Shown here: in pieces, positions 727-42,808 of the stretch | How the letters are laid out: each line of letters starts with the position of its first letter | Numbering within the stretch: the stretch's first letter is position 1 | Assembly: GCA_030390025.1 (NCBI GenBank) | Contig: CM059432.1 | Coordinates: 94,490,001 to 94,554,000, forward strand | DNA from: Squalus acanthias | Taxonomy: Eukaryota | Reading direction: 5' to 3' | DNA: 64,000 bases | Translations under genes and position numbers: made by a program | The notes under the pieces: model-generated | Database searches by the model: none | Told to the model about the DNA's origin: nothing | The model's input: only the letters and a program-made list of their open reading frames with translations

Positions 727-3046
727 TGGGCTAACTGTAGAAGTTAAGGATAATATTAGATTAAAAGAAGAGGCTTCTAATGTTGCAAAGAATAGTAGTA
801 AGCCTGAGGATTGGGAGAGCTTTAGAGCTTTAGAAACCAGCAAAGGATGACCAAAAAATTGATAAAAAGGGAGAAAATAGAATGAGAGTAAACTAGCAAC
901 ATATAAAAACAGATTGTAAGAGCTTCTACAAGTATGTAAAAAGGAAGAAAGTAGCAAAAGTTGGTCCATTAGGGCTGAGACCGGTGAAATTATAATGGGG
1001 AATAAGGAAATGGCAGAGACTTTAAACAAATATTTTGTATCTGTCTTCACAGTAGAAGACACAAGAAGCATACCAAAAATAGTGGGGAACCAAGGGGCTA
1101 ATGAGACTGAGGAACTTAAAGTAATTAAGATCAGTAGAGAAAAAGTACTTGAGAAACTAATGGGACGAAAAGCCGACAAATCCCCTGGACCTGAGGCCTA
1201 CATCCTCGGGTTCTGAAAGAGATGGCTGCAGAGATAGTGGATGCATTGGTTGTGATCTTCCAAAATTCTCTACATTCTAGAACAGTCCCAGCAGGTTGGA
1301 AGGTAGCAAATGTAACCCCACTATTCAAGAAAGGAGGGAGAGAGAAAACAGGGAACTACAGGCCAGTTAGCCTCACATTTGTTGTCGGGAGAATGCTGGA
1401 ATCCATTATTAAGGAAGTGGTAACAGGGCATTTAGAAAATCTTCATATGATTAGGCAGAGTCAACATGGTTATAAGAAAGGGAAATCGTGTTTAACAAAT
1501 TTATTAGAGTTTTTTGAGGATGTAACTAGCAGGGTAGATAAAGGGGAACCAGTGGATGTAGTATATTTGGATTTCCAAAAGGCATTTGATAAGGTGCCAC
1601 ATAAAAGGTTGTTACGCAAGATAAGGGGTCATGGGGTTGGGGGTAATATATTAGCATGGATATGGGATTGGTTAATGGACAGAAAACCAAGAGTAGGGAT
1701 AAACGGGTCATTTTTAGGTTGGCAGGCTGTAACTAGTGGGGAGCCACAAGGATCAGTGCTTGGGCCTCAGCTATTTACAATTCATATTATTGACTTAGAT
1801 GAAGGGACTGAGTGTAATGATTCCAAGTTTGCTGATGATACAAAGCTAGATGGGAAAGTAAGCTGTGAGAAGGACACAAAGGGCAGGATTTTGAATGACC
1901 CGTGGAGTCGGGTTTGGAGGCGTGTGGGGGGTTAAAGTTGCAGATTCGGGGGTCCCGACCCCATCCCGCCTCCACGCAATTTTGATAAAATCGTGTGCGG
2001 TATTCCTGACTCCGTCCCGCCTCCAAGAGGCGGGAGAGGCCATTAAAGCCCTAAATTGGCTCTGAAATGCCATTTTGAAACGTTTTAGCTAGTTTAACCC
2101 TTTTCTGATGTGAAGCACACCTGATGTGAAACATGGCAGTGAAACCTGGCGGGAGCACTACTATCAGCTGCAGGTCCACTATTACAACGGAGATGTGATG
2201 AAGGTAGTAGTAGTATTAGGTCTGAAAGTCGCCTCTGATGCTGCTGCATTGAATGTCTTCAGAGACTGCCAGGGCCTTTGGAGGACCTGGATGGAAAACA
2301 AAATTCTCTCTCTCTCTCTCTCTCTGCTGAGATGCTGCTCTTGCATCCAGGTCCTCTCACAGCAAAGGACCAGACCAGGCAGTCTCTGACCTACAATGAT
2401 GACATCATCAGAGGCGACTTTCAGACTGAAAGCTCTAATTGGTTCATGGGTTCCCACATGCTGGAACTCAATTGCCCAATTAAGTGAAAATTGCGTCAAT
2501 CTCCCACATCCAATTTCAGGCGGGTGGATAACACGAAATGCGGATGACACGACCCCCAAGACAAAATCCAGCCCAAAGAGACTGCAAAGGGATATAGACA
2601 GGTTAAGTGACTGGCAATAAGGTGGCAGATGGAATATAATGTGGGGAACTATACAGGGCTTTGGTGAGACCACACTTGGAGTACTGTGCACAGTTTTGGT
2701 CTCCTTATTTAAGGAAGAATATACTTGCCTTAGAGGTGGTGCAACGAAGGTTTACTAGATTGATTCCTGGGATGAGAGGGTTGTCCTATGAGGAGAGTTT
2801 GAGTAGATTGGGCCTATACTCTCTGGAGTTTAGAAGAATGAGAGGTGATCTTATTGAAACATGTAAGATTCTGAGGGGGATTGACAGGGCAGATGCTGAG
2901 AGGTTGTTTCCCATGGCTGGAGAGTCCAGAACTACGGGGCATAGTCTCAGGATAAGGGGTTGGCCATTTAAGACTGTGATGAGGAGGAATTTCTTCACTC
3001 AGAGGGTTGTGAATCTTTGAAATTCTCTACCTCAAAAGGCTGTGGA
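727..3046 (+). mobile_element. CR1 LINE ORF2 fragment, interrupted by MITE 1881-2574
   Basis: RT motifs [28 protein letters not shown] and FADDTKL; C-terminal RPHLEYC and RRNFFTQRVVNL. Confidence 0.95.
1881..2574. mobile_element. PIF/Harbinger-type MITE, family A
   Basis: TIRs GGGCAGGATTTT...AAAATCCAGCCC and TSD AAA. The CR1 reads through after removal. A related copy lies inverted at 19957-20625. Confidence 0.9.
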
Positions 3047-3551
3047 TCAGTTGGTAGCACTCTCGCCTTCTGAGTTAGAAGATTGTGGGTTCATAGTCCC
3101 ACTCCAGAGACTTGAGTGCAAAAATCTAGGCTGACACTGCAGTGCAGTGCTGAGGGAGTGCTGCACTGTCAGGGGTGCTGTCCTTCAGATGAGACGTTAA
3201 ACCGAGGCCCTGAGGTCAGGTGGACGTAAATGATCCCATGACACTATTTTGAAGAAGAGCAGTGGAGTTATCCCCGGTGTCCTGGTCAATATTTATCCCT
3301 CAATCAACATAACAAAAAAAACAGATAACAACAAAAATGCTGGAATCACTCAACAGGCCAGGCAGCATCCGTGGAGGCACTCAGCAGGCCATTATCACAT
3401 TGCTGTTCGTGAGAACTTGCTGTGTGCAAACTGATCGCTGCGTTTCCTACATTACAACAGTTACTACATTTCAAAAGCATTCATTGTAAAGCGCTTTGGG
3501 ACGTCCTTAGGTCGTGAAAGGTGCTATATAAATGCAAGTCTTTCTTTTTTT
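3047..3551 (+). mobile_element. tRNA-derived Deu-domain SINE (SacSINE1/AmnSINE1-like)
   Basis: tRNA-like head, Deu-type core (CATTATCACATTGCTG...TTTCCTACATTACAACAG) and L2-like tail GCTATATAAATGCAAGTCTTTC. Confidence 0.85.
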
Positions 3552-4509
3552 TACCAGGGTTACACAACATTTCCAGACGACATCACATGAGTAAGCCATT
3601 TTCTTTTCCTTTTGGACACCTTACAATTTTCTTCAAAATAAAAAAAATGACAAAGATACAGTGAAATGAATGAACTTTATTAATTTGCATTGTGGTATAT
3701 GTGTTTAATATGTCTCTGGCTGTTCTTAGCTCTTCTATGTCATTAAATTTTCTGTTCTAGTAAACAAGATTTTCATCTCTCTTCCAGAGAAATAACGCTG
3801 GCAAAGCGAGAACAGCACCGAGGCATTTCCCAGTCATAGTTTTCCTTTCAGCAAAAGTTACTTCAAATTTACAACTGCAGATTTAAGGAGCTTTGCATAT
3901 AACATCATAAAACTCAAGACATTGTAGCTAGAAGCTTCACTTCAGTGTCTATCTGCTGTTACTATAAAGCAGCTCTGACCGTCTGTCCAATAAGAAATCA
4001 GCTTGCAGTGGCCACATAAACAGACTAATAGATGATCTGTCCTTTTGAGCTCCAACAACAAGTCAATTTAATTTCAAACAGCACTTCAGACAACACTTCA
4101 ATAATATGACTTTATATTAATAGTTGGCCTATTTAAGTGTAATCAAATTCTGCCATTAAACTGTGACATAAATAAATAAGAAATAAATGTGATCGATGTC
4201 CTTTCAGCTACTTGTGCCTAAGAATTGAATTGCATGGAGAAAAGCTGCCATGGTTTACTCCAATGATTATCAACAAGATGAAAATTTGACCTGCCCTTCA
4301 TAGCGTAAAGTGACAATGGTGTAGCTCAGAGAAGGAGATGACCACCATCTAGGATGCAAAAGCTCATTGAAGCCTGAAAGATGAAACTGCATCATGAAAT
4401 CCATTTTATATTGGGCTGAAAGCATAGTAATGGTTGCAGTGGACTTGAAGTCATTTCTTTCAGGGAAAAAACAGCATTCAATCCACAGTTCCATGGGTGA
4501 GCATTTCAG

Positions 4510-5250
4510 CTGTGTCAGCCGTGGCTCAGTTGGTAGCACTCTCGCCTCCAAGTCATTAAGGTTGTTGAACACAAAAATCTAGGCTGACACTCCACTGCAG
4601 TGCTAAGGGAGTGCTGCACTGTCAGAGGTGCCGTCTTTCGGATGAGACGTTAAACCGAGGCCCTGTCTGCTCTCTCAGGTGGATGTAAAAGATCCTATGG
4701 GACTATTTTGAAGAAGAGCAGGAGTTATCTCTGGTTTCCTGGCAAATATTTATCCCTCAATCAACATCACAAAAACAGATTATTTTGTCATTATCACATT
4801 GCTGTTTGTGGGAGCTTGCTGAGCGCAAATTGGCTGCAACGTTTCCTACATTACAAGATAAGGGGTCGGCCATTTAAGACCGAGATGAGGAGGAATTTCT
4901 TCACTCAGAAGGTTGTGAATCTTTGGAATTCTCTTCCCCAGAGGGCTGTGAATGCTGAGTCTTTGAGTATATTCAAGGCTGAGCTAGATAGATTTTTTGA
5001 CTCTAGGGGAATCAAGGGACATGGAGATCGGGCAGGAAAGTGGAGTTCAGGTCGCTGATCAGCCATGATCTTATTGAATGGCGGAGCAGGCTCGAGAGGC
5101 CGTATGGCCTACTCCTGCTCTTACTTCTTATGTTCTTCTTATGTTCTTATTACAACAGTGACTGCACTTCAAAAGTACTTAATTGGATGTAAAGCACTTT
5201 GGGACATCCTGTGGTCGTGAAAGGTGCTATATAAATGCAAGTCTTTCTTT
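4510..5250 (+). mobile_element. Deu-domain SINE with nested CR1 tail
   Basis: Same SINE family as 3047-3551, split by a CR1 3' end. Confidence 0.85.
4857..5148 (+). mobile_element. 5'-truncated CR1 3' end
   Basis: RRNFFTQKVVNLWNSLP, CR1 3'UTR with TTCTTATG repeats, and 7-bp TSD ATTACAA (4850-4856 / 5149-5155). Confidence 0.9.
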
Positions 5251-5318
5251 ACTACAGCCTGAGACAGCAGCCAGCAGATGGCTTGGGACGGACTTTTGTG
5301 ATGTGGGCCGAAGACAAT

Positions 5319-5925
5319 GGCCTTGATATTAACCACCCCCCACAACGGGCGGGAAAAGGCGAGGGGGTTAAAGAGTTAAATACGAGGATACAACCCCAAC
5401 GAGTCACACATACGTCTGCCTCCTTTTTTACAGCGGTGGATATTGGAGCATCCGGGTGTCCCGCCGTGGAGAAGTGGGACACTTCATTAACATATTTAAA
5501 TTAGGCTCCCACAGTGCAATTGCGAGCCTGATTTAAAATTTACTGCTGCTGCACAGGTTTCCCAGCGGTCGGGAAACCCAGCAGTGAAAAGGAGGCGGGA
5601 GCTGCCGGTTCTACAAGGTATGTGCCTCTTTCAGCACACCTTTTGGGCCAGGAGGAGCAGGAGTTCTCCCCTCATTCCCTCAAGTAAGTCTTCGGCCTCC
5701 CCCCTCCGATTGCTGGGTACCGTTCCCACGGGTCCCCACCTGCGGCCTCCTGCTGCTGGTGTTCCCTCCCACCCACTGGCCAGGCTGTCCACGTGGCCGG
5801 TTGCTGGGTGAGAAGCAGCTAAAAAGTGCTAATGAGGTCCTGCCGTTAAGTTCAGCAGGACTTCCGCATCCCCAGCCTTGCCGAGTTCGTCGGCTGTTTT
5901 CAGCCTCCCCGTAAACATCGGGGCC
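5319..5925. mobile_element. Harbinger-type MITE, family D, inserted in an L2 fragment
   Basis: TIRs GGCCTTGATATT...AACATCGGGGCC and TSD AAT. The flanks join into a minus-strand L2-like RT fragment (~5255-6000). Confidence 0.8.
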
Positions 5926-7569
5926 AATGGCTTTGGTCTTCCCAATGTTTAGTTGGAGAAAATTTCTGCTCAGCCAGTGGAAATTAGTTTCTAAATCCAA
6001 GGATAAGATTTTTCACAAGTTCTGATTTCTAGGTTACGTCTCTCACAGCTCATGATGTGATTTGATCTTACACAGCATATATTTGCTGTTGAGATATGAC
6101 AAACTTGTAAAATTCAGAACAATGCTTGAAAATTGAGACAACTAATCAATGATTCCAAACTGACACTTCCAAAATGAGTTACAATAGATTTCCCTGTAAT
6201 TCAGGTGAGAACATGTTACATAATACAGGAGATAAGACGTGTTCTGAATTTCAGAGGAATAGCTGTCAATGTATACAGGACAATAAACAGAACCACTGAG
6301 TAATTAGAGATGTAATAATACAACTACTGAAAACTGATAATTAGTGTCATAAAAAGATGCTCTAGTAAGCATCATTCAGCAGTATGATGATTACTTTATT
6401 CTTATACAAGTGTCATATCCCCGAAATAACTTTTCTGTGACAGTCAGATGAGTTACACGCCATTCTACAGACTCCATATAATTTACAATATTCAATTATG
6501 CTACTTATTGAGCAATAAAATCATTAACAGGGATATAAATTATAACACTAGACACTTGCTCTCATTCTACCATCATTTATCAACAGATACAAGCCCTAGA
6601 ATCAGCACAAAAATAGTGAGGCTTTCTCAATAAGACAAGAAGAGTATAAATTATAAGTATGTGAATTTTACCACATTTTATCATTGGGGGATGCTGCTTA
6701 CCACAGATGGGGGACAATAATGTCATGGAATAAGAAAAAAAATTGAAGTTCCATTCTTTGCTACATTTGCAACTAGTTTAGGACACTACAAACTGAACCT
6801 CTTTATCCTATCTGAATTTGGGGAAAAGTGTGTTGAAAATTGCATATACCGGAGCTATGCCAAGGTAGAAATTGGTTATTTCCTATTTAGGCAGTAGCAC
6901 GCTGACAGCATGTGCCCCAACCGGGAGGCTCAAGGCCTGCCTGAAATTGGTCCCTGGGGCCTCAATAACTGACACCGACATTTACAAAATGAATAAAATG
7001 GGTTACATAAGACATAAGCCTAAAAATGACCGTTTGTGATATTAGTAGACTAACACTTAGCACATATGGATGAGATTTTTCTGTCCTCTATTTTAGCAGA
7101 GGCATTGTCCCATTTAAAATAAATGGGTTAATACCTGTGTTTAAATAGCAGCAAAAGGAATGTCACATGAATGCTTTATGTGTTCGCTAGTAATATCACC
7201 AATAGTAACTTCTAGGTTACAAGCTCATGACAACAGTGCTTCATTTTTTTTAAATTACATTGTAGTCAAAAACTGCAGCATAGTAAAAAATTAACCACAA
7301 GGAGCTGACATGACAAATCTGTTGAAATTGGCTGCAAAGTTTCCACTGTAAATATTATTAGAGGAACACAGTGCACTTGTTTATGTCATAATGAGCATTA
7401 AACAGTGTGAGGGGAACATACTTCAAGTGATTACTTTCATAAAATGTCTTTTCCTGTGTACATGATACAAAATATCAATGAACAATTTCACGGCAGGTAA
7501 CCACATCGCAAACCTAGTATCAGCCTGTGATAAGATGGTGGCTCCGTGTCTTTATCAATGATCAATCAC

Positions 7570-8054
7570 TGTGCTCGCACCAAGTCCCATTCACCCATCT
7601 CCCCTGTGCTCGCTGACCTACATTGGCTCCTGGTTAAGCAACGCCTCGATTTTAAAATTCTCATCCTTGTTTTCAAATCCCTCCATGGCCTCGCCCCTTC
7701 CTATCTCTGTAATCTCATCCAACACAACCCCCGAGATATCTGCGCTCCTCTAATTCTGGCCTCTTAAGGATCCCTGATTTTAATCGCTCAACCATTGGTG
7801 GCCGTGCCTTCAGCTGCTTAGGCCCGAAGCTCTAGAATTCCCTCCTGAAACCTCTCCGCCCCTCTCTCTCTCTTTCTTCCTTTAAGACGCTCCTTAAAAC
7901 CTACCTCTTTGACCAAACTTTTGGTCATCTGTCCTAATTTCTACTTATGTGGCTCGATGTCAAATTTTGTTTTATAACACTCCTGTGAAGCGCCTTGGGA
8001 CGTTTTACTACGTTAAAGGGGCTATATAAATACAAGTTGTTATTGTTGTTGTTG
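7570..8054 (+). mobile_element. L2 LINE 3' end
   Basis: PVLADLHWL..QRLDFKILILVFKSLHGLAPSYL peptide, followed by tail GCTATATAAATACAAG(TTG)n. Confidence 0.9.
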
Positions 8055-9308
8055 TGGCAAGTGTCCGCCCCACAGCCTTATTACAAATTTCTACTATCTA
8101 GTAGACATAGGAATTCCTGCAGCACATTCTCATAACAGTGGAGACAGATATACTTATATATTCATAGATGTTGATGAACTGGTTGTTTGAACAGAAGACT
8201 GGAGTTATGAAATAATATTTTTCATTTCATTATCACTTGATCATCAATACAGGCTAAGTGTTACATATAAAAATGAATAGTTTGATGAGTGCACGAGGAG
8301 GTGACGGCTATTAGAAGTGTGCAGACTAATTGAGAAAATGTACTGGAATTGGAATGCTACGTAAAGCTTATTCCTGTAAAGAAAAATGAGCAAACAGTTT
8401 AATGGAAACACAATGTCAGTACAGGAGAATGGAGTATTTCCCAGCTTCTCTTCTTAGTAACACTCCCAGGTTAGTCAGAAGGAAGAACTCCCTTTACAGT
8501 CACTCAACAATATGCCTCAACTCCAACCTCCAAAGAACACCCTTCACCCCACAGTGTGATATTTCTGTTCTGTTTCCCTCAGCTGACATGATTGTCAGCT
8601 CTCTGAATACGACTGGCAATTAAGTACCTGTCACTGACAGTTTATGGGCTGCATCTTCTAGGACTGTGTTGAGACTTCCCAAACTAATTTTACTGCCTGC
8701 TGGCAGATGCTTTCATCTGATCAGCCTGGGTTATATTCAAGCACATGTCCTTGCAGTAAAACAACAGCATTTGTTTTTCTTGCCAATTTTCTCCCCCACA
8801 CCCAAAGCCATTAACTCCTTGCTGGGATATAATAGACTTTATAAAGGTCAATTTCTGTGCAAGCCCAACCAAATGCTGCACCAGGAGAATGTAGATTCTG
8901 CAGCTGTTGTCAGGAATGCAGAGCCCAGTGCCCCAATAAGTAGCAAAAATAAATTATGACAATGTTACTGTATATTCCGAGCTTTTAAATGTATCACAGT
9001 CACTTACATCAAGGACAAATTATTGCTTCTATTGTTTTTCAATAGTGTTGAAAATAACTTCTGTATCTTTGTAATTGATCAAGTGGGACCCTAGACAAAA
9101 TACAAAATTTCCATCCTTCGTTAAGTAAAATGTTTTGTTTCAATTGGCCAAGTTAATTTTAAGATTAGAATAAACTGTCCAGTCTCACAATCTCAGAATC
9201 TGCTAAGATCAGCCCACTTTTGTCGATGAGAAGGAAAAATAGATCTTAGTGTTTAGCTCTCATTTAGTGCGCTCGCCAACTGTACCTGAGATTGGCAGCT
9301 GTAATGGT

Positions 9309-10117
9309 CACAAGGTTATCCACTTTGGCAGCAAAAACAGGAAGACAGATTATTATCTGAACGGCAATAGATTGGGAAAAGGGGAAGTGCAACGAGACCT
9401 GGGTGTCCTTGTGCACCAGTCGCTGAAGGTAAGTATGCAGGTGCAGCAGGCGGTTAAGAAGGCAAATGGTATGTTGGCCTTCATAGCGAGAGGATTCGAG
9501 TACAGGAGCAAGGATGTCTTGCTGCAGTTGTACAGGGCCTTGGTGAGACCACACCTTGAGTATTGTGTGCAGTTTTGGTTGCCTTATCTGAGAAAGGATG
9601 TTCTTGCCATGGAGGGAGTGCAGCGAAGATTCACCAGACTGATACCTGGGATGGCAGGAATGACGTATGAAGAGAGATTGGGTCGATTAGGCTTATATTC
9701 GCTAGAGTTTAGAAGAATGAGAGGGGATCTCATTGAAACTTATAAAATTCTAACAGGACTAGACAGACTAGATGCAGGAAGGATGTTCCCGATGGCAGGG
9801 GGAGTCCAGAACCAGAGGTCACAGTCTAAGGATAAGGGGTAAGCCATTTAGGACTGAGATGAGGAGGAATTTCTTCACCCAGAGAGTGGTGAACCTGTGG
9901 AATTCTCTACCACAGAAGGCAGTTGAGGCCAATTCATTAAATATATTCAAGAAGGAGTTAGATATATTTCTTAAGGCTAAAGGGACCAAACGATATGGGG
10001 AGAAAGCAGGGACAGGGTACAGAATTTGGATGATCAGCCATGATCGCATTGAATGGCGGAGCAGGCTCGAGGGGCCGAATGGCCTGCTCCTGCTCCTATC
10101 TTCTATGTTTCTATGTT
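9309..10117 (+). mobile_element. CR1 3' fragment (same young subfamily as 31090, 46094 and 60552)
   Basis: ORF2 C-terminus near-identical to 50640-51440, with TTCTATGT tail repeats. Confidence 0.95.
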
Positions 10118-10399
10118 AAGTATAGTCGGCAAGCGCAGGCACAGTAAGCATCACAGCTACAGCAAGCACATTAAGCATGACCCAAAAACAGATCAAGTCC
10201 CAGCCATAGCACCTGCAGCACAATAAGGAGTAAACTAACAGGAGAGAACAGCAGTGGAGAAATTCTGCAACAGTTTCTATGGACAGAGAATTGGGTAATA
10301 CTAGGGGTCTCTGGTATAGTTCCACAGGCATCCTCTGGTATCTCTCCCAAATGACGATTTTAATCATGCATCAGCCTAGACAGTGAACATCAGCGGGTT

Positions 10400-14955: not shown

Positions 14956-15701
14956 GGGCCAAAAATTCGGCACTTGCCGGGTGAGTACACAAGGCCTCCT
15001 GAAGTGCCGGTTTCCTGCATGCACTGCGCAGGCGTGGGAAACCGGAACTTCCGGTCTGGTGAAGGGAGCGGTTCAGAGGTGAACCGCGTGCGCGGGAGAG
15101 GCTGCGCGCACGCAGCGAACTTAGGGTTCTTTTCAGGTTTCTCCGGGAAGGTAAGTATGGAAGAAGCTGCGCTTTTAAAAAGGAGGCGCAAGACCCGTTA
15201 TTAACAAGGTAAGTGGTTAATTAATTACAATTTAAAAAATTTTTCAACAGGTTTATCTTTTTTAGATACTTTAAAGAAAGGTAAGTTTATTTTTAGCACT
15301 GTTAAAAAGTATTTTAATTTTTTCAAAAATTTAAATTTTTGTTTAAAGTAATTAATTTATTTAACTTACAGTTATTTTAAAAATGTGATGTTTTTTTTTT
15401 AAATTTATTTGAAGTTTAGGTGTTGTTTTGGGGCCGATTTCAATTCATAGATTTGACAGGTCCTGTCAAATCTATGAATGAAAGATGGTCTGCTGCCATT
15501 GGCTCTCCATGGCCCACGCGATCCCAGGGGACGCATCGCACTAACTACGCCCCTGGGATACACAGGCACTGCACGCCGGCACTTGGAGCAGGCCCAGGAG
15601 CTGAAGTCCCCGTGGGCCCAGAGGTCAATGGCAGGCACGGTAGGTAGGTGCGCGCGGGATCCTTGCACCCGCGGGAAGCCAGGGAGCCTAATTTCTGGGC
15701 C
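14956..15701. mobile_element. Harbinger-type MITE, family C
   Basis: TIRs GGGCCAAAAATT...AATTTCTGGGCC. Colinear homologue at 38825-39568. TSD ambiguous (possibly ATG). Confidence 0.8.
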
Positions 15702-16702
15702 ATGATCATTTTCATAATGATAAGTTACAACATTCTTATCTTGCTAGTACGAATTCATATCTTTTCTCTCCTCCAGGGCCTTACGCATGCTGCAGCAGTA
15801 GCTGGATGTCACAAACAACGATTCCTCAGAGGAGCTCAATTGTTCTGAGGGTGCACCGTCACAGGACTCATGCTTACCATGCAGCAACTCAGATAGTCGC
15901 ACTTTGGTAAAACCAGTAAGACAGATAGTTGGGTTTTTACCTGGTGAGTCACACTTCACAAGTGAGCAAGAGCAAATGGTGGTGGCAGGGACAGCTGTGG
16001 AGAGTCTGCATCGAAGCTCTGCTCAACTGGACACAGATGCTGTACCCCGGGAGGCCATCAATGAAAAGGATAATCATTGAGCAGCAGCAGAGGAGAATAT
16101 GCAATGTACTGACAGACCTTCCAGCACACTGACCACGAATGCAGAGAGAATGGAGGAGTCCGCCTAAAGCATGAGTGTATTGATGTCACAGAGCATTGCG
16201 ATGCTGTCTTGTATGGATAAAGTGGCCAAATCCATGGAACATCAAGCGCGGCAATCACAAGGCCATGTAGGCCTTGAGCACGGCCATGCAGACTCTGGAT
16301 GCCAACATGTCTGCCGCCTTAAACACGGTGACAGAAACCTTAGCCTTGTCCTTACAGTGCCGCACTGATCTGCACCAAAGTGCTCTCCAGCAGAGTGGTA
16401 GCAGTGAAGTGCGGCTGAGCCAAGAGAGGGATGATGGCGAAAGAGGACATGGAAAAGGGAACGCCACTGAAAGCACTTCCACTTCTCACCCGTTGCCCCC
16501 CCTCTCAGTCAGTACCCCACATGCTGCCTCGTGCCCCGATAGCCAAGTCTGCCCCTGCACACGGGCTCCAAAACCCAGAGGACATCGGCCAAGAGCATCA
16601 CAGCAGTCAGAACAGGGATCTGAGCAGCTAGCCTCTACCTCTGCTGAAGCCACAGGGGTTGCACCATGTAGGAGTAGTAGGAAAAGGAAGAGTAAAGCTT
16701 TG

Positions 16703-17376
16703 GGGCTAAAAATTGAGTATGGGGCGCTAACTTCGCCGGTGCGCTACTTTTTAGTGCCCCAGAAAAATCAGCACCCCCGTGCTGGAAATTGAGAGGTTGC
16801 GCCCCGAGAGGGAAGCGGGGCATTACTGGAAGCGCCTCGTATCCCTCTTGGGGCGCTGCGAGTCAATATCGCAGCGCTATGTGGCGCTGCGGCACGTCGC
16901 ACCGCGGTATTGCAGGCCTTGCTCCCCTTCTTAAAGGGGAGGGGCCATGCGCAGCGCGACCCGGGGCCCAGCTGGGCTCCCGGGAATCGGGAGTGCCAGC
17001 AAAAGAGCCCGGCACTCAAGCACAGGCAGGTGCTGGCAGGCGGCCAGCAACAAAAATGGCCGCCCCACACCGCGCCTTTAAATTGCGCCTCCCCGGCCGC
17101 AGGTAGGCCCCCCTGACCCCGTCGGACATAGCGTCCGGCGCTAAGTCAGGGGGCGCTCCCGAAGATCGCGGCCGGGGTGCGAGCGGGGCGCTGTGCACAG
17201 CAATGATGCCATCGCCGGCGGCGCAGCGCTGCTACCGGTTAGCGCTGCCGCTAACCTCCCGCTGAATTTCACGGGAGGCATGGGCGGCGCCATGTCCGGG
17301 CGCTAGTTGCTTTGCGCCCCATTAGTGCCCTCTTTGGGCGCTAATGGGAGGCACAAAGCAACCCAATTTTTCCCCC
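16703..17376. mobile_element. GC-rich Harbinger-type MITE, family B
   Basis: TIRs GGGCTAAAAATTG...CAATTTTTCCCCC, TSD TTG, and many GGCGCT/AGCGCC subterminal motifs. Inverted homologue at 40899-41531. Confidence 0.9.
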
Positions 17377-18306: not shown

Positions 18307-19956
18307 ACTTGTAATCCAGAGGCTTGGACTAATAATCTGGAAACATGAGTTCAAATCCCAACATGGCAGCTGGAGAATTTGAATTTAATTAAGTAAATAA
18401 ATCTGGAATAAAAAGCTAATATCAGTAATGGTGACCATGAACCTACCGGATAATCGTAAAAACCCATTTTGTTCACTAATGTCCTTTAGGAAAGGAAATC
18501 TTCCATCCTTACCCGGTCTGGCCGATATGCAACTCCAGACCCACAGCAATGTGGTTGACTGCTCTCTGCAATGGCCTAGCAAGCCACTCAATTGTATCAA
18601 ACCGCAACGAAAAGCAATAAGAATAAAACATGACAAAGGCACACTCAGCCCAGTCGACCCGTCAAACTCCTCCTCACTAACATCTGGGGACTTGTGCCAA
18701 AATTGGGAGAGCTGTCCCACAGACTAGTCTAGCAACAGCCTGACATAGTCATACTCACAGAATCATAGCTTTCAGCCAATGTCCCATACTCATCCATCAC
18801 CATCCCTGGGTATGCCCTGTCCCACCAGCAGGACAGACCCACCTGAGTTGGCGGCACAGTGGCATACAGTCAGGAGTGAGTGGCCCTGGGAGTCCTCAAC
18901 ATTGACTCCGGATTCCATAAAGTCTCATGGCATCAAGTCAAAAATGGGCAAGGAAACCTCCTGTTAATTACCAGCTACCGCCCTCCCCTCAGCAGATGAA
19001 TCAGTACTCCTCCAGTGCATCTTCTAGATGGTACACACTGCAGACATGGTGCACCGGTGGTGGAGGGAGTGAATGTTTAAGGTGGTGGATAGGGTGCAAT
19101 CAAGTGGGCTGCTTTGTCCTGGATGGTGTCGAGCTTCTTGAGTGTTGTTGGAGCTGCACTCAACTAAGGAAGTGGAGAGTATTTTATCCAGGACGAGGGA
19201 AAACCTACTTGACCTCGTCCTCACCAATCTACCTGTCGCAGATGCATGACAGTATTGGTAGGAGTGACCACCACGCAGTCCTTGTGTGAAGACGGGACTT
19301 TGTCTCCACAAGGACTGTGTGGTGGTCACTCCTACCAATACTGTCATGCATCTGCGACAGGTGGATTGGTGAGGATGAGGTCAAGTAGGTTTTTCCCTCG
19401 TCTTGGTTCTCTCAACATCTGCTGCAGGCCCAGTCTGGCAGCTATGTCCTTCAGGACTTGGCCAGCTTGGACAGTAGTGGTGCTACCGAGCCACTCTTGG
19501 TGATGGACATTGAAGTCCCCCACTCAGAGTACATTCTGTGCCCTTGCTACTTCTAATGCTTCTTGCAACTGCATTGGTTCAAGAAGGCGGCTCACCACCA
19601 ACTTCTCAAGGGCAATTAGGGATGGGCAATAAAATGCTGGCCTTGCCAGCTATGCCCACATCCCGTGAATGAATTAAAAAAGAAGCAATGTGAGCAGCTG
19701 GTGGTGCATTGCCCTCATCATCTTCTTCCTCCTCGTCTACCTCCTCATCCTCGGAATTGTCTGAAGAGGATCTGCGCTCTGCGCCTTGTTCCTCCTGCAG
19801 GTCCAACCTCGCTGCTACGCAATGCTGTGCAGAGCGCAGAACACCACAACAAATCTGGGCATTCTGGCTGGTGTGTACTGAAGGGCGCCTCCAGATCTGT
19901 CTAGGCACCTGAAGCGAATTTTCAGCATGCCGAACGCTTGTTCGATCACACATCTA

Positions 19957-20625
19957 GGGCTGTATTTTGATACTGGGGCGGGTTGGGGTCGTGTCATCCG
20001 CATTTTGTGTTATCCACCCGACTGCAATTGGATGTGAGAGATTGATGCAATTTTCACCTAATTGGGCAATTGAGTTCCAGCATGTGGGAACCCATGAACC
20101 AATTAGTGGTTTCAGCCTGAAAGTCGCCTCTGATGATGTCAGCATTGATGCTGCATTGAAGGTCAGAGACTGTGAGAGGACCTGGATGCAAAATGAGCAG
20201 CAGCTCTAAGTCTGCAGAGAGAGAGAGAGAGAAGAGAGAGAATTTTTTTTTGCTCCACCACTCCCAGATGCCAGCCAGCCACTCACTGATAGTCAGCGCA
20301 GCCACTGATATTCAGCTATCCACATGTGCTCCCGCCAGGTTTCACAATCGTGTTTCAGAACAGGCGTGCTTCACGTAGACCAAAGGTTAAAATCACAAAG
20401 GCCTTTCAAAATGGCATTATAGAGCCAATTTAGTGCTTGTTAAGGGCCTTAACAGCCTATCCCGTCTCTTAAAGGTGGGACGCAGGCGGGACCAGCAGAC
20501 ACGATTTCATCAAAATTGCGTGGAGGCGGGATGGAGGCGGACTTGTGCCCGCCCGCCACTTTTCACAATTTTAACCCCCCACACGCCTCCAAACCCGCCT
20601 CCACGGGTCAATGAAAATCCAGCCC
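19957..20625. mobile_element. Harbinger-type MITE, family A (inverted relative to 1881-2574)
   Basis: TIRs GGGCTGTATTTT...AAAATCCAGCCC and TSD CTA. Splits the transposase at T-R-C. Confidence 0.9.
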
Positions 20626-22590
20626 CTAGTGTTCATATGGCATTCACCGTAACTCTGTTGGGCTTCATTGGTCGGATTTCTGACGGGTCACATCAGCCAA
20701 GTTTGAAGTAGGTATCCCTCGTCTCTTAGCAGCCACCCCTTAAGTGAGCTTCCAGGTCCTAAGACGTCAGGGAGCTTGGACTGCCGCAGGACAAAAGCAG
20801 CTCTCCAGGAATCTTACGCACACCTGCAGAAATATCTTTTTGTGGTTGCACAGCAGCTGCACATTGATGGAGTGGAAGCCCTTGAGGTTCATGAATACTC
20901 CTGGTTAATCTGGGGGTGCCCGGATAGGCACGTATGTGCAGTCGATAATGCCCTGCACCTGTGGGAAGCCAGCCAGAGCTGCAAAGCGAGCGCCCACTCA
21001 TTCTGACTGGTGTCAGCGCAGGCAAAGTTCTCATAATTGCCGGCCCTGGCAAACAACCCACCAGTCTTATGCATTTGTGAGCCACTGACTGGGAGATCCT
21101 GCATATGTCTCCGGCAGAGCCCTAGAAGGATCCAGAGGCAAAAAAATTGAGGGCGGTGGTGAATTTGACAGCCACTGGTAACGCGTGGCCACCAGGTCCA
21201 GCAGACAGCAGGTCTTCTTCTAGCAGGCTGCATATATCTGCAGATATAGCCTCCTGAAGCACTGCTGTTCCGATATGTCAAGGAAACTCAGCCTCTGCCT
21301 GTAGACCCTGTGTCACAGATAGTGCCTCCTGCGTGCTGCACCCCTCTGTTGCTCCCCTCCTGCTGTCCAGCTACAGGTCTCTCAACAGCAGGCTGCTATT
21401 ACTGCTGGTCCCCTCTCTGATATCCAGCTACAGGTCTCTCAACAGCAGGCTGCTGCTGGTGCTGGTCATATTGCTCCTCGTCTGAAGTCCAATCTAAGGC
21501 AACTAAAGCGCCACCCATCTTGATGTGATTCAAAAAACCTTCAAAGTGTAGAGAGCAAACTCTGAGCAAAAATGCAGTGAACAATCCCTTTCCCACTAGC
21601 ACTTAAGAATACAGCTGTGAGTACTGAGTATTTTATGCAGTATTTCCATGAGATTGACTCAGATCCCACAATTGTCGTTGTATTCTCGCCTTGCTTTCAC
21701 TGGCGAGTTTCAGGAAGCCCGGGAAACTCATGGATGCGCCGCTAAATTTGAAAGTCAGTTGAATTATCGCTCCAATTGAGTGATTAGCATATGTCAACAG
21801 ACAATCCGCCTCTTCTAAGGCGTTTGCGCACAGGCAGCCTAACACGCTCCAGTTAAACGCAGAAGTCAGTGGGTTGGAGCCGGCTTCCTGATGCGCTTGC
21901 ATTTTTCCCTGTTTTCACCCCCCCGACATACACACCCAAAACCACGTGCTCCTCGAGGTTCAAATTTCCCAAGTTTCAGAGTCACATCACTTAGGCAACT
22001 AGTACAGGTATGGGCTTGAACCAGCCCCACAACAATAGTAATGTCCTAACTATCCACTGTACTGGTATTAATTACTACCAGCGCAGTGCAATAGCGGTGT
22101 TGAAATGCCAGCATTCATGGTGGCATACAAGCCAACCATTCAATCATCTATATTAAATGTTTTTTGTGTGGAGTGCACTTTCTGTAAGATTCAAGCGTAC
22201 TTCTTATAACACTTGCCCTGTCACATTCTATTCATTTTATAGAACAACATTTTACTTATTCAGTCACCATAAGTCAGTGGCCTTGATAATGACACAACAC
22301 TGTTATTGTTATGAAGAAGCATATTCTCTGACTCATGCCATGGGAGATTTATTGCTCGTAATATATTAAAAGTGATTACATACAGCACGCACTTCCTGTA
22401 AATGTAACATTTCCTCTCAAGTTTTACTGTCACACGTTTTTCATCATGTCTGTCTGTCACACTAAAACTTGTTATTTCTATGCCTATTTGATTGGCTCAT
22501 TCTTCCCACATGCCTAGTTCCAGCACTGAGTCCTCCGAGTACTTGATTTGCATCTCCAAGGCTGATGGCACTGTTCTTCGCAGCATCACA

Positions 22591-34866: not shown

Positions 34867-35451
34867 GGGGAATACGCCTGATCCGGGGTAGCCCGAAAAG
34901 GGCTAGGACTAGTACTAATCCTTTCAGGTGCATGGTGCGGGCTTCGCCCAGCTGTGTTCCAAAATGGCAATCGGGGTCCTACTTACGTCATAGAACGCCG
35001 ATTTGCATAGTACCGGCTGAATCAGGAGTGCACGCCGACCTTTCCAAAGATGGCGTCGGCCAGATCGGGACTGAGAATGGGGCACAGCGCTTTCCCCCAC
35101 CATTTTAGGGCACTAAAATTACCATCCAGAAAATCTCCTCCCTAATTTCCAGAATAAGTAAGAAAAAAAAATTATATCTGGACATTTTAATGGTTTGTTT
35201 TTTAAATGGGGAGAGATGATGAGATTATTATTTCAGATTGATTAACTAACATCTACACAAGGAGCAACATGATATAACTTGTTAAAACAACTGAGAAAAT
35301 CTTACTGCTCAAACAGAGTCAGTGATTAAATGTCAGCAGGTGGAATCTCATAGCAATTCTCAATTCTCCACTGCAGCAAGGTGAAGCTTTGCAAACTTAA
35401 TTAACTGTAAAGAAGTTCATTTGTGTTCCCTGGCTTATTTTAGATGAGTTT

Positions 35452-36235
35452 GGGGGCGATTTTGCCAGCCCTGGGGAGGCGGGTTTGGAGGCGGGACTGC
35501 CAGGAAAATGGCAGAATCTGGGGGCGGGTACCCATCCCGCCCCCAACCCTCCTCTGTACCATCTTCCCAGGAGGCGGGTACCACACCCACGCCAGGTCCC
35601 GTCTCCTGGAGGCGGGAAGGGGATTACAGCCACTTAACTGCCTGTTAACGTCGTCGGGAAACCCTGCCAGGGTCAGCGAGGCAAGCAGTGGGTCTGTGGG
35701 GGTCGGAGGGGTCCAAAATTGCGCTGTGGAGGTGAGTGATGGGTGCAAGTGTGGAGAGGTAAGTATGGGAGGTGAGTGAAAAGTGTTAGAAAATGTTTAC
35801 TTACCTTTGTTTCTTCCTGCAGGCTTCAATCATTGGGGATCCGGAGGCTCCAGCATCTCAATGGCAGAGATGACAGAATGGCTGCTGCATTCTCCGATGC
35901 AACAGCCATCTGCTTTCTGCTCAGAAAATAGGTTTGGTGAGCCTTGAGTACAAGAACTCACCAAACAACAGAGATTGTCAGTGTTTGACAGCTTCTCAAA
36001 GCTGTCAAACGATGACAATTCATCTGTCAAAAATTTTTGACAGATGAAACGTCATACACTGACGTTCTCTGTCACCGGCTTCCCCTTAATTGGCCTGCTA
36101 AACCCACTGGGCGGGCTTAATAAGGTCAATCAAGGGAAAATAGCGTGGGTTGGCCACAAGTCGATGGAGGCGGGACTAAAACCCGACAAGCAGCAGTCCC
36201 GCCTCCAACGCGCTCCCATTGGCAAAATCATCCCC
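35452..36235. mobile_element. Harbinger-type MITE
   Basis: 16-bp TIRs GGGGGCGATTTTGCCA...TGGCAAAATCATCCCC and TSD TTT. Confidence 0.85.
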
Positions 36236-36447
36236 TTTATTTCAGTAAGTTTTGTCCGAATATATAAAATTCTAACATTTGAAAATCCAACTCAACTGCC
36301 ATATTTAAACTCATTAAAACAAATATACAGAATTCTTGGCAAGTGGAGCCACAGTGTCCCGAAATAAACTGTGGCTGAGATTTGACTAAGGCATACAACG
36401 CTCTGATAGAAGAAACTTCTTAAAAAGTCTTGTGATTTCCAAATAAT

Positions 36448-37048
36448 GGGGGAGAAACTGGCCTGTGTTGTGCCTGATTTCTGGGCTTTAATGTGTGTTT
36501 AGAGGATGTATTTTGGGTGGCGGTATCCCACGGCCTCCTCCCCTCCCCGCCCCCTGGAAGTGCAGCAAAATGGCAGGTGTCAACTTCCGAGTGTCCAGGG
36601 CGCTCACCTGAAACAGGCGTTGGGTGTCTTGAGTATGCTAAGCCGGGGCCTAATACCTGCTTTAGGAGCACGCTCCCAAATTCAGCAGAAATTGGGCGGA
36701 GCATGCGCTTAAAGTGACCGCTAGAGGCCGCCAACGAAAAGACTAGTAATTTTTTTTAAACTTACCTTAATGTGGAGCCAGGAGGAACAGGAGTGCTCCT
36801 CCTGGCTCCACAGCAGGACTGTGGGCTGCTGCCAGCCCGGATCAGCACTGTTCCTGTTCACCTCCCCCAGCCCTTCCAGGACTTACCTGTGGGCCGCCTC
36901 AGTGTCAAGTCGATTGATTTTGCAAAAGCCTCAACTGGTGTCCACAGCTCACCAGTTTTACGGAAATGAGGCCCGAGGAGCAAGCCTCGACCATCTTCAG
37001 GTGTGCGTTCCAGGTTTGCCAAACTGGTGCAAAACCAATTTCTCGGCC
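36448..37048. mobile_element. Harbinger-type MITE
   Basis: TIRs GGGGGAGAAACTGG...CCAATTTCTCGGCC and TSD AAT. Confidence 0.8.
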
Positions 37049-37514
37049 AATGATTACTGAGTCCCAGTTTCAAACTTTTCTCAGAATTCTGGAACATCTG
37101 TTTGTTAATTAGGTAACAGCTAAGGGTTATAAGATTATTTAGTTTTGCACTTTGAGTTTGTGTCATGTCTTATTCAACAGTCGAGGCTCCTATTTGTACC
37201 ACTATGCACTATATGAAGCAAAACAAAGGAGAATAACATTTGAGCAGTATATATTGTGTGACCTCAACTGTTCAGAGCCTGAGTATGGGATCCAATAAAT
37301 AAAACAAAGAAAGACTTGCATTTATATAGCGCCTTTCACAGCCTCAAGACATCCCAAAGCGCTTAACAGCTCATGAAGTACTTATAATGTAGGATAGCAA
37401 ATATTGCTTTAGTTCCCTTGAAGTTTCTGCATGAGTTACATATATTCCTTGAGCAAAGCAAGAATGGGTTGATGTCTTTCCCTGTGAGATAAATTTAATG
37501 CAGAGATGACAGGT

Positions 37515-37890
37515 AACAGTCTCGCCTCTGAATCAGAAGGTTGTGGGTTCAAGTTCCACTCCAGAGACTTGAGCACAAAATCTAGGCTGACACCTCAGTG
37601 CTGTGCCGACTTTCGGATGAGACCCATCTGCCCTCTCAGGTGGACATAAAAGATCCCATGGCACTATTCAAAGAGCAGGGGAGTTCTCCTCCATGTCGTG
37701 GCCAACATTTATCCCTCAACTAACATCAGCTTATCTGGTAATTAACTTGTTGCTGTTTGTGGGTCCTTGTGCTGCCACGTTTCCTAAATTACAACGTGAC
37801 AACACTTAAAAAAAGTACTTCATTGGCTGTAAAGAGCTTTGCGACGTCCTGAGGTCGTGAAAATTGCGATATAAATACAAGTCTTTCTTT
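37515..37890 (+). mobile_element. Deu-domain SINE (older, with deletions)
   Basis: Homologous to 4510-5250. An inverted tail fragment lies at 37307-37392. Confidence 0.85.
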
Positions 37891-38824
37891 CATATGACTT
37901 TGGATTTTTCTCTTTATTGATACAACTTGTAGCTTAAACAACAAATTCAGATTTCACATAAGGGAAAAAATGCAATTTTCTTTCTTCGCTGAGTGCTTTT
38001 AGTGGAATGCAAATAAGCATATGGTACAGAAGTGCTCGCTGCCAAATTAGAAGCCTGGAGGGCTAAAATTAGAATCTTTCTACATTTTTTAAATATGCAT
38101 TTTGGCAAAAAAAACCTTGATTTTAAATCTTAAAAGCATGAATCACAGCATCACACTGTTTTTTATGACCTTCAAACCTTTGGGATAATTTGTGCATCAG
38201 GATAGGATGAGGGACCTTTTTCAGCTCAGCATGCTTGATATGAATATCATGCAAGAATAGAATTGATTCTAGCATACTTGTATATCTAGATTCCAGTCCA
38301 CTAGAACTAGGTGCACAGCTGGTTGGATTAAAAATGGTAGCACTCCATTGTGGTACAATATGCCACCGTATGCAGTGATAGAACAGGAGTTTGTTCCTAA
38401 AACTTCACAATTAGCAAGGTCATACACTCAGTTGCACTGACAGGGGCCCACAATGAAAAGAGGCTGTGTATTTCTTCACAAGGTGAATGGTACAATTAAT
38501 GGTAAGTCACCAACGCTGTCCAACTCCCTGAAGCCAATTACGGAGTGGCATTGATAGAGGCTGGGACAAGGTCCCCTGACCAGAGTTTTAATAAAATGGT
38601 GCATATAAAGATGGGGTCGGGGCGGGGCGAGATAATAAGTCCGTACTCCCTTTATTTTCCTTGATTTTTTTCAGCAATGTACTTGTATTTATCCCATTCA
38701 AGTATATCTATCGTATTTTAAAGAAAACACAATGGTGCGATATTCAAAGCACTTAATACTTTTGATGTGAACCAACTTACCCTATGCCCTGCCAATCACT
38801 TCTTACGATCAGCAAGAACATATT

Positions 38825-39568
38825 GGGCCGAAAATTGATCCCGGGACGCGAGAGTACGCACTGCATACTCTCGCGTATTCCCACTCCAATTGCCGGTTTT
38901 CTGCATGCCCTGCGCATGCGCTGAAAACCGGCAATTGCTCTTCCGAAAAGGGGGCGGGGCCTGGGTGCATCGCGTGCGCGCTACAGGCTGCGCGCACGCT
39001 GTGCACTTCATGCTTTGGACGCGCAGGTAAGTAGGGAAGATTTTGGAAATGTAAAAAGGAGGAGTAAGACCCGCTTTTAAGAAGGTAAGTAGTGAATTAA
39101 GTATTTTTTTGAATTTTTTTTTACAGGTATATCTTTTTTATAGACTTTAAAGACAGGTAAGTTTATTTTTATAACTTTTTAAAAGATTTTAAATTTTTTC
39201 AAAAATTTAATTTTTTATTTAAAATGGTTAATTTAATTAACTATACTTATTTTATTAATGTGATGGTTTTTTTTTTAAATTTAATTGAGGTTTAGCTGTT
39301 ATTTTGGGGGGGTGTAAGATTCATAGATTTCACAGCCATGCTGTGAGACTTATGAATGGAAGATGGTGTGCTGCCATTGGCTCTAACTGAGTCACGTGAT
39401 CCCACAGCTCGCACGAATTAACTACGCCGCTGGGATACGCAAGCCCAGCACAGCTGATGTCTGGAACATCAAGTTCGTGCGAGCTGGATCAGAAAAAGCA
39501 TAAGCGAGGTGAGACCACGCGGGGAAGGCTTACCCCCGCGGGAACAGAGCGAGATCAATTTCTGGGCC
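38825..39568. mobile_element. Harbinger-type MITE, family C
   Basis: TIRs GGGCCGAAAATTGATC...GATCAATTTCTGGGCC. Homologous to 14956-15701. TSD not clean. Confidence 0.85.
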
Positions 39569-39814
39569 AAGAATTAGGAGCAGGAGGAGGCCATATGGCC
39601 CCTTGAGCCTGCTCTGCCATTCAATAAGATCATGTCTGATCTTCGACCTCAACTCCACTTTCCTGCCTGATCCACATATCCCTTGATTCCCCAAGGGTCC
39701 AAAAATCTATCGATCTCAGCCTTGAATATACTCAACGACTCAGCATCCACAGGTAGAGAATTCCAAAGATTTACAACCCTCCGAGTGAAGAAATTCCTCC
39801 TCATCTCAGTCCTA

Positions 39815-40286
39815 GCGTCTAGTGTCAGCTGTGGCTCAGTTGGCAGCACACTCGCCTCAGAGTCAGAAGGTTGTGGGTTCAAGTCTCATTCCAGGAACTT
39901 GAGCACATAAAGCTAGGCTGACACTCCAGTGCAGGGCTGAGGGAGTGCTGCACTGTCCAAGGTGCCGTCTTTCAAATGAGATGTTAAACTGAAGCCTCGT
40001 CTGCTCTCTCAGGTGAACGTAAAAGGTCCCATGGTACTATTTTGAAGAAGAGCAGGGGAGTTATCCCTGGTGTCCTGGCCAATATTTATCCCTCAACCAA
40101 CATAACAATAACAGATTATCTGGTCATTATCACATTGCTGTTTGTGGGATCTTGCTGTGTGCAAAATGGCTGTCGCGTTTCCTACATTACAACAGTGACT
40201 CTGCTTCATTGGCTGTAAAACGCTTTGAGACGTCCGGCGGTCATGCAAGGCGCTATGTGAATGCAAGACTTTCTTTTCTTTCTTTC
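39815..40286 (+). mobile_element. Full-length Deu-domain SINE
   Basis: A box TGGCTCAGTTGG, B box GGTTCAAGTC, Deu core and (CTTT)n tail. Confidence 0.9.
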
Positions 40287-40898
40287 TAAATGGCTGACAG
40301 CGTATCCTGAGAATATGCCCCTAGTTCTAGACTCTGCAGCCAGGGGAAACAGCCTCTCAGCATCTACCTGTCAAGCCCTCTCAGAATCTTATGTTGCAAT
40401 GAGATCGCCTCTCATTCTTCTAAACTCCAGAGAGTATAGGCCCATTCTACTCAATCTGTCCTTAAAGGACAACCCTCTCATCCCAGTAATCAATCTAGTG
40501 AACCTTCATTGCACCCCCTCTAAGGCAAGTATATCCTTCTTTAGGTACAGAGAGCACAACTGTACACAGTACTCCAGGTGTGGTCTCACCAGAGCTCAGT
40601 ACAACTGTAGCAAGACTTCCTTACTCTTGTACTCCAACCCCCTTGCAATAAAGGCCAACATGCCATTTGCCTTTGTAACTACTTGCTGGACCTGCATGTT
40701 AACTCTCTGTGTTTCGTGTACAAGGACACCCAAATCCCTCTGAACAGCAACATTTCATAGCTTCTCATCATTTCAAAATATTCTGTTTTTCTATTCATCC
40801 TACCAAAGTAAATAAACTCACATTTCCCCACATTATACTCCATCTGCCACCTTATTGCCCACTCACTTAACCTGTCCATATCCCTTTGCAGACTCTTT

Positions 40899-41531
40899 GG
40901 GGGCTAAATTCAGTTGATTTGCGCCTCCCGTTAGAGCCCTAAGAGGGCGCAAATCAACTAACACCTGGACACGGCGCCGCTAACGCCTCCTGTGAAATTC
41001 AGCCCCGCTCGCGCCCCGGCTGTAATATTGGGTGGCGCTCCCTGACTTACCGCTGGACGCTATGTCCGCCAGGGTCAGGGGGGCCTACCTGCGGCAGGGG
41101 CGGCGCTAGTTAAAGGGGAGGTGGCGGGCGGCCATTTTTGTTGCTGGCCGCCTGCCAGCACCTGCCCCCGTTGCTGTCCCCGGCCCCGATGAAGCCCCCC
41201 CGCGGGGTGCCGGCTGCTTTCCGTGAGCCCGGCACTCCTCTTAAGTGCCGGGCTCATTTGCCGGCACTCCCAATCCCTGGTGGCCCAGCTTTAATAAGGC
41301 GAGGAAGGCCTGCAGTACCGCGGCGCGATGTGCCTTAGCGCCATGTAGCGCGGCGATATTGGCTCGCAGTGCCCCAAGAGGGACACGGGGCGCTTCCAGT
41401 AGCGCCCCTCCTCCCTCTCGGGGCGCTACCTGGGAAAATCGGCCGCGGGGGCACTAACTTTTTCAGGGCACTAAAATTAGCGCCCCGGCGAAGGTAGCAC
41501 CCCAAAGGGGCCGCGACCCAATTTTTACCCC
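40899..41531. mobile_element. GC-rich Harbinger-type MITE, family B
   Basis: TIRs GGGGGCTAAATTC...CAATTTTTACCCC and TSD TTT. Confidence 0.9.
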
Positions 41532-42808
41532 TTTGTCTCCTCCTCACAGCTTACTTTCCCATCTAGCTTTGTATTGTCAGCAAACTTGGATACATTACAC
41601 TCGGCCCCTTCATCTAAGTCATTAATATAGATTGTAAATAGCTGAGGCCCCAGCACTGATCCTTGCGGCACCCCACTAGTAACAGCCCATCAGCCTGAAA
41701 ATGAGCCGTTTATTCCTACTCTCTGTTTTCTGTCCTTTAACCAATCCTTTATCCATGCTAATATATTACCCCCAACCCCATGAGCCCATCAGTACTTAAC
41801 AAGAGATTAGTAAAGTGAAACTTTAAAGTTAATTTTAACCAGACGACACCAGAGCATTTTACATTGCTACAACCAATTTTGACTTTAATGTTCAATTGTG
41901 GTTGATCTTCTAATTGGGCCCACAACTGCAAATAATAGCTGAAACAACTATGTATTAATGGTGTGGGTTGCAGTAAGTGCTATTAAGTGCATACAGCTTT
42001 TTTGTTTCACTATTGATGGCATTTTTTGTTAATGCTTATGACGATTATTAAATGTGTCAATTAATTTGCAAAATTTTACTATCCGAGGTCGTGCCAATTT
42101 GACCTGAAATTGCTTTTGCCTTTTGAACATTTTGTGTAAAATAATTGAAAGGTTGATGATTAAAATGCTACATGGGCCTCAAAAGCATGCTTACAAAAGC
42201 TGTATTTTCTATTCCATCTAATTAGGCCAGCTGAACTGCTGTCATTTATAACTTATGTGTAGTAATGTGTAGTTTAGATCTTGAGTTCTGTACTTTGATT
42301 ATTGAATTGTGATTCCAATTTTAATGTTTAATAATACAAACACATATGTCAGGCCAGGTGTTAAAACTTGCTCCCGTAATGACAGCAGACGATACTACCT
42401 GTGACTGCTCAACGCCGAGTGTTGGGATGCTGTTCAATAAACTGGCCACCTCCAGAAATTGCCAACGGTTTTGGGTGGCTGAGCACCTGGAGGAGGATAG
42501 TGATGGAGGAATTGCCATCAAAAGGCAAATGAGCTGATCCTTGAATTAGCCAATGGCACCCCAAGCTACAAGCCATGACACAGCTGCAGTACAGAACAAG
42601 TCAATGTTCCCCCTGTGATGCTGTTCCAGAAGTGTACATAATAATCAAGGTGGGGGAGAATCAATGCTTTATACAAATTAACTATCATATTCTAGGACCT
42701 GCACTCTAGAACCTATAAAGTAATCTCCTATGTGGAGCTGCATCAAAAGCTTTGCTAAATTCTAGGTATATTAAACCTGCCAAGTTCCCTTGCCAACTAA
42801 CTCCATTA

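Follow-up and report, generated by a model that had tools for sequence, protein, structure and literature searches.

The window analysed here, a stretch of 64,000 nucleotides from Squalus acanthias (GenBank assembly GCA_030390025.1, contig CM059432.1, positions 94,490,001 to 94,554,000 of the forward strand), contains two copies of a long interspersed nuclear element (LINE), each interrupted at the same nucleotide of its reverse transcriptase (RT) frame by a miniature inverted-repeat transposable element (MITE) of the Harbinger type. The host LINE carries a LINE-type RT domain (RVT_1, E 1.5e-21) and is taken by us to be CR1 from its motifs, both window copies being without the 5' part. The features of the two loci, including the terminal inverted repeats (TIRs) of the MITEs, are as follows.

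729..3047, + strand: CR1-type LINE copy A, placed by blastn to a natural reference copy (88-92%)
1336..1880, + strand: RT frame of copy A up to the insertion (QGSVLGP; FADDTKL at 1828-1848), RVT_1 E 1.5e-21 from its translation
1872..1880, + strand: left target arm GGACAC and left AAA duplication of MITE A (AAA at 1878-1880), read from the sequence
1881-2574, + strand: Harbinger MITE, family A, 694 bp, TIRs GGGCAGGATTTTG / GGGCTGGATTTTG
2575..2583, + strand: right AAA duplication (2575-2577) and right arm GAGACT of MITE A, site score 8.1 bits
39569..41787, - strand: CR1-type LINE copy B, interrupted by MITE B and by another insert of about 500 nt (39815-40321)
40890..40898, - strand: right AAA duplication (40898-40896) and right arm GAGTCT, the best allele, of MITE B, site score 11.6 bits
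40899-41531, - strand: Harbinger-type MITE, family B, 633 bp, TIRs GGGGTAAAAATT / GGGGGCTAAATT
41532..41540, - strand: left AAA duplication (41534-41532) and left arm GGAGAC of MITE B, read from the sequence

The presence of a pair of MITEs on one duplicated AAA in two CR1 copies, as claimed in the original prediction, was confirmed at exact coordinates. Upstream of the two elements the flanks are 89% identical across 256 nt, and downstream they are 93% identical across 76 nt, with zero offset in the alignment, and both elements possess perfect GG-ended TIRs of approximately 12-13 bp, each with an AAA duplication. Comparison of MITE A with MITE B returned no alignment above chance-level words (best E 0.64). 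The insertion site lies 10 codons past the FADDTKL motif in the RVT_1 frame (FADNTKL in copy B), where the duplicated AAA covers the Thr and Lys codons and the following codon in most copies is a Ser codon, AGT or AGC. A 64-kb window with two filled sites is estimated to be uncommon (about 0.001 per window), yet would be expected in some tens of windows across the genome. In six further CR1 copies of the window, found by motif scan, the homologous place is empty in all six, the best score on the target matrix described below being -0.8 to 5.6 bits within a 7-nt neighbourhood. A regular expression for MITE ends detected a single pair in the window; a BLAST end library took its place, although some families still escape it.

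The further suggestion that the MITEs had inactivated the RT did not survive inspection of the hosts. Copy A is 5'-truncated, starting 1142 nt before the site, and has an internal deletion of about 220 nt after MITE A; copy B, likewise truncated, starts 252 nt before the site and hence is without more than half of the RT domain, which begins about 545 nt upstream of it. As the 5' truncation of a LINE arises at integration, both copies were likely dead on arrival, before the MITEs came, and inactivation by the latter is therefore unsupported. Among 90 left-anchored CR1 copies retrieved from the genome, 21 extend to 1300 nt upstream (30 of the 90 were retrieved to 1.5 kb only). At the 3' end of copy B lies a 744-bp element (38825-39568) with a second Harbinger end type (GGCCCAGAAATT), whose flanking triplets are mismatched; a similar element occupies 14956-15701.

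The superfamily of the inserts was established from longer elements at the same CR1 AAA, measuring 4282, 4275, 3486, and 4213 bp, with a clean AAA duplication in three of them. L355 (4282 bp, L355:1952-6233) holds an uninterrupted 410-aa frame matching DDE_Tnp_4 (E 6e-38) and, on the opposite strand, a Myb/SANT open reading frame (ORF; Myb_DNA-bind_5, E 7e-9). A DDE transposase was also detected in L356 and L357 by domain match and in L359 by tblastn, and no Myb domain was matched in five single-frame pieces from L356, L357, L359, and L360, in which an exon may be missed. A two-gene plan of transposase and Myb/SANT protein is that described for PIF/Harbinger in PMC2836001 and PMC9179366. Because full elements at the site carry a DDE transposase, one of them together with a Myb/SANT ORF, the inserts are PIF/Harbinger elements, as had been proposed. 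The target-site duplication (TSD), 3 bp long, is AAA around A, B, and most fully flanked inserts at the site, and GG-ended TIRs are common to the MITEs and the coding elements, their perfect stretches of about 12-13 bp being shorter than the 25-50 bp given as usual for PIF/Harbinger in PMC9179366.

Both ends of MITE A are 72-82% like those of the transposase-bearing L356 and L357, and both ends of a third window MITE of 893 bp are 85-90% like those of the autonomous L355, which is likely the parent of the abundant MITE family of about 893 bp. With MITE B, the match to L355 (86%) is confined to 49 terminal nt, and no parent for it was found among the coding elements compared. DDE_Tnp_4 is very abundant in this genome (63,885 first-look candidates, of which 150 were scored); the 20 best loci were rejected as parents of A or B, representing a related family with different ends. 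A young Harbinger family (L335-L354), with many intact 391-aa transposase frames, copies 93-99% identical to one another, and flanking triplets that are mostly ATT/AAT, may have been recently active.

That the MITEs differ and had arrived separately, another element of the original prediction, was upheld well beyond the first pair. The 43 inserts at the site for which both flanks were available fall into 21 families under the 80/80 rule, and five of the six multi-member families are present in both orientations. Insert lengths at the site extend from 236 bp to 4.3 kb. In a midpoint-rooted tree of 78 downstream CR1 flanks, built after the exclusion of 13 of 92 flanks with short alignments and of one duplicate, filled copies are intermingled with empty ones within three subfamilies. 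The label of filled T-allele copies requires 16 changes on this tree, at least 7 of them forced by well-supported branches, the bootstrap being incompletely settled. The independence of the insertions at the CR1 AAA is thus supported.

Occupancy was then estimated across 3.7 Gb of genome, with tallies among the matches listed counted by eye on rows from the start of contig C1 only. A 35-letter left flank followed by GGG occurs in 11 places, and a MITE-type end comes next in 11 of 11. Copies reading GAGTCT after the AAA gave 5025 matches, and 31 of the 100 listed were filled (33 with the inclusion of two degraded ends; Wilson interval for 31/100, 23-41%), as against 2 of the 100 listed among the 2309 matches for copies reading GAGCCT, the synonymous variant (Fisher p 1e-8). 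Conversely, 1380 junctions of the form CC-AAA-GAG(H)CTGCAAAGGGATAT were found, where MITE ends account for 98 of the 100 matches listed (92 T, 5 C, and 1 A), and a whole-count estimate from them gives approximately 25% of T copies and 3% of C copies filled. Overall, filled sites range from 25-33% in T copies and 2-3% in C copies, so that one synonymous base (AGT versus AGC, both Ser) goes with a roughly tenfold higher occupancy. Given a background of about 5.1e-5 elements per base (74 ends in 720 kb), itself a lower bound, the 31/100 filled GAGTCT copies place the hot spot far above chance. A control AAA located 36 nt upstream, in copies of the same kind and with poor arms scoring -0.3 to -3.3 bits, had MITE ends in 0 of its 54 CC-AAA matches, all of which were examined without a separate denominator search.

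An initial estimate of about 5-6% had been derived from a 19-letter left anchor, which occurs in 2318 places with a MITE end in 6 of the 100 listed; the same anchor with GGG occurs in 143 places, of the 100 listed, about 72 are MITE ends, and the rest are point variants (13) or short deletions (15) (hence 6/100 listed, or about 72/100 listed scaled to 143/2318). This estimate was discarded as too low for the T subfamilies because the left anchor favours the C subfamily. Among the 90 left-anchored copies, a MITE is present at the site in five, and others are scattered over about a dozen positions, those used repeatedly being -834 (3), +190 (2), +278 (2), and -90 (2). The second recurrent CR1 site, 834 nt upstream (-834), was filled in 3 of the 100 matches listed (of 4191), and the notion that it is hotter than the AAA site found no support in those subfamilies that were tested. 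The insertion peak is sharp and occupied by several families, as had been anticipated, but it is one of several CR1 hot spots. Likewise, the claim that the LINE carries a high-affinity Harbinger target holds for the GAGTCT subfamilies and only weakly for the GAGCCT copies. About 1-2% of insertions fall at the AAA site (3-4 of 249 unbiased ends; 1 of the 200 ends listed), with approximately 98% elsewhere, and the CR1 octamer tail and other repeats receive more insertions than the AAA site.

Small lesions were also observed at the hot spot. About 15 of the 100 matches listed for the left anchor with GGG (e.g., L016 and L020), or roughly 1% of left-anchored copies, have lost 11 bp between two direct repeats of CAAAG, which may reflect slippage or the scar of an excision repaired through microhomology, and a 2-bp loss right before the AAA recurs in 3 of the 100 GAGTCT matches listed. 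In another CR1 subfamily, MITE ends recur at a different position, about +262 on the reference (at least 6 of the 100 rows listed for one end type).

The target preference of the elements was derived from MITE ends sampled regardless of their flanks, the loci being fetched for two end types, which have 15,782 and 14,516 exact occurrences. The 229 ends lying off the CR1 reference yield the half-site W W A R A S W C with a WWW centre and its mirror image, that is, an overall 15-bp palindrome ARASWC-WWW-GWSTYT outside CR1, with central triplets that are mostly ATA, AAA, AAT, and TAA; the same matrix comes from those 124 of 350 ends whose flanks look unique. On this matrix the T allele scores about 12 bits and ranks 1 of 1780 in both T-allele copies scored, and the C allele scores 8-9 bits, ranking 4 of 1780 in one C-allele copy and 3 of 2201 in the reference copy. 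Read on the opposite strand, the T in GAGTCT is the A that stands four bases out, where the motif is most informative. The predicted occupancies of 0.13-0.19 for T and 0.015-0.029 for C, compared with the observed 0.25-0.33 and 0.02-0.03, reproduce the allele ratio and agree with the occupancy within twofold. Divergence from the group majority is 0.024 for the AAC/T subfamily, 0.047 for the C subfamily, and 0.053 for the other T group, which is internally structured; age fails to explain the allele effect, since the AAC/T subfamily is less diverged than the C subfamily and yet more filled. Within one left-anchored set, T is present in 5 of 17 filled copies and in 7 of 75 empty ones (p 0.04).

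Taken from the sequence comparisons above, it is very probable that many PIF/Harbinger elements and their MITEs have inserted independently at one AAA of the CR1 RT frame where the codons match the preferred palindrome of about 15 bp, the site likely being a hot spot because the AAA and its arms spell the target preferred genome-wide. A complex of transposase and Myb protein would read the palindromic motif directly, CR1 retrotransposition would beforehand have multiplied that motif into thousands of copies, and successive Harbinger bursts may have filled a quarter to a third of the motif-bearing copies. The overlap would be passive, the hosts being mostly truncated LINE copies that were already dead. 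The idea that the LINE offers the transposons low-cost landing sites may hold as a by-product, although selection for it is unsupported.

Several observations weigh against this reading. The occupancy of T copies is 1.5-2 times the motif prediction, which could represent a real excess but may be model error, as the background rate used is a lower bound. Allele is to a large extent confounded with subfamily, and the test within the left-anchored set is small (p 0.04). The -834 position scored 6.3 bits in one reference copy, yet it received 7 of 38 mapped unbiased ends versus 3 for the AAA site; because it is filled in only 3/100 listed matches despite those 7/38 ends, the behaviour of other subfamilies or families differs, and no single motif suits them all. 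Furthermore, the listed rows all lie at the start of contig C1, and the WWW centre differs from the CWG centre of the zebrafish Harbinger3_DR.

The excess over the motif prediction would also be expected if CR1 context beyond the motif (a longer sequence, DNA shape, chromatin, or a bound protein) drew Harbinger to the site, or if harmless insertions were kept preferentially. The repeated flanks of 226 of the 350 ends are in keeping with such an influence, but may be no excess over the genome's own repeat fraction, and the use of a lower-bound background leaves room for the shortfall. The nearby AAA, which shares this context, has 0/54 insertions and a single base goes with the tenfold difference, for which reasons we consider an effect of context unlikely. 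An arms race was entertained as well, in which the Harbinger load, reaching up to a third of copies, would hit active CR1 masters and select the synonymous base, AGC being an escape allele. With the midpoint root, however, the least diverged subfamily falls within the C-allele clade but has T, as though the target had been gained, and the arms race is quite improbable.

Very high occupancy at a position common to many families and to autonomous elements might instead suggest dedicated targeting, whereby these Harbingers evolved to home on the LINE position as Dada does on small-RNA genes and R2 on ribosomal DNA. This is rejected because the site takes only about 1-2% of insertions, and the motif is moreover palindromic, identical in unique DNA, and used in both orientations; we regard such homing as highly improbable. 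Hardly credible, finally, is one ancestral insertion copied along with the LINE by retrotransposition or segmental duplication, its inserts having later diverged or been replaced. It would account for the shared nucleotide in related CR1 copies, and one likely segmental duplicate pair does exist among the fetched loci (L097 and L105, 9 Mb apart, which align along the entire 6-kb stretch tested). It was rejected in view of the unrelatedness of A and B, the 21 families in both orientations, the widely differing insert sizes, and the 16 label changes on the tree, including those forced by well-supported branches.

The preference of Harbinger for the CR1 palindrome has close precedents. A target preference of 9-15 bp is a described trait of the superfamily (PMC2836001), in which two-ORF elements such as Harbinger3_DR mobilise short non-autonomous copies. 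The target consensus of Harbinger3_DR, cited in PMC3016246, is AAACACCWGGTCTTT, a 15-bp palindrome with a 3-bp centre whose arms AAACAC/AAAGAC fit the ARASWC found here; its centre is CWG, whereas the centre here is mostly WWW. Harbinger3_DR is a reconstructed element, whereas the present data concern natural insertions of many families, with the best target multiplied by a LINE. In the human hot spots of one transposable element within another described by Levy, Schwartz, and Ast (PMC2836564), MER1/hAT elements in MIR3 similarly reuse fixed retroelement positions, in both orientations and in common among related families; those are hAT rather than Harbinger elements, and the text consulted gives neither per-site occupancy nor an allele effect such as that measured here. 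Dada (PMC3706591), likewise a DDE transposon, also recurs at a single position within a multicopy sequence, but is strictly target-specific with a TSD of 6-7 bp, in contrast to the 3-bp TSD, short palindrome, and approximately 98% of insertions elsewhere in the present case; with 3-4/249 unbiased ends and 1/200 listed, most copies do not lie at one target position, as they would for an element of the Dada type. McGurk and Barbash (PMC5932611) reported double insertion at preferred sites, in which near-consensus sites are reused more often, and side-by-side MITEs also occur here (L143), although theirs are tandem dimers in Drosophila rather than the occupancy of a LINE position. The literature searched, the coverage of which was incomplete and without supplements, yielded no description of a hot spot for Harbinger in the RT of CR1, and Harbinger is unmentioned in PMC13343379.

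The mechanism is therefore already known, from the long target preference of Harbinger and the nested hot spots in human, and what is of use is the effect size, together with an experiment that nature has provided. Exact-match copies of the one site, more than 7,000 of them with natural point changes, record the use that Harbinger has made of each variant; they could give a quantitative in vivo model of its target choice and could date CR1 subfamilies against Harbinger bursts. In repeat annotation, CR1 consensus models for this genome will be split or chimeric at the hot spot.

Further copies of these elements lie in the remainder of the window, the third MITE mentioned above having inserted into another CR1 subfamily at another position.

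49475..50367, + strand: third MITE, 893 bp, with AAA duplication, at position -190 of a CR1 copy of another subfamily

Additional MITEs of family B, family A, and a third type are located at 16702-17376, about 19956-20625, and 35452-36235, respectively. Harbinger transposase remnants at 19800-19961 and 20616-21291 stand on either side of the family-A copy (about 19956-20625), which suggests that this copy is nested in a decayed autonomous element. Elsewhere in the genome, the same MITEs have frequently landed in the octamer repeats of the CR1 3' tail (about one-fifth of one end-type listing, judged by eye), as in L138, L143, L153, L160, and L161, two MITEs standing side by side in L143. A further repeat also recurs, in about 4/100 and 3/100 of the rows listed for the two end types; L232, L233, L238, and L177 exemplify this repeat or the +262 site mentioned above. 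Lastly, two long LINE-like copies in the window (45486-48554 and 59944-63024), 14.5 kb apart, are near-identical to each other (95-99%).

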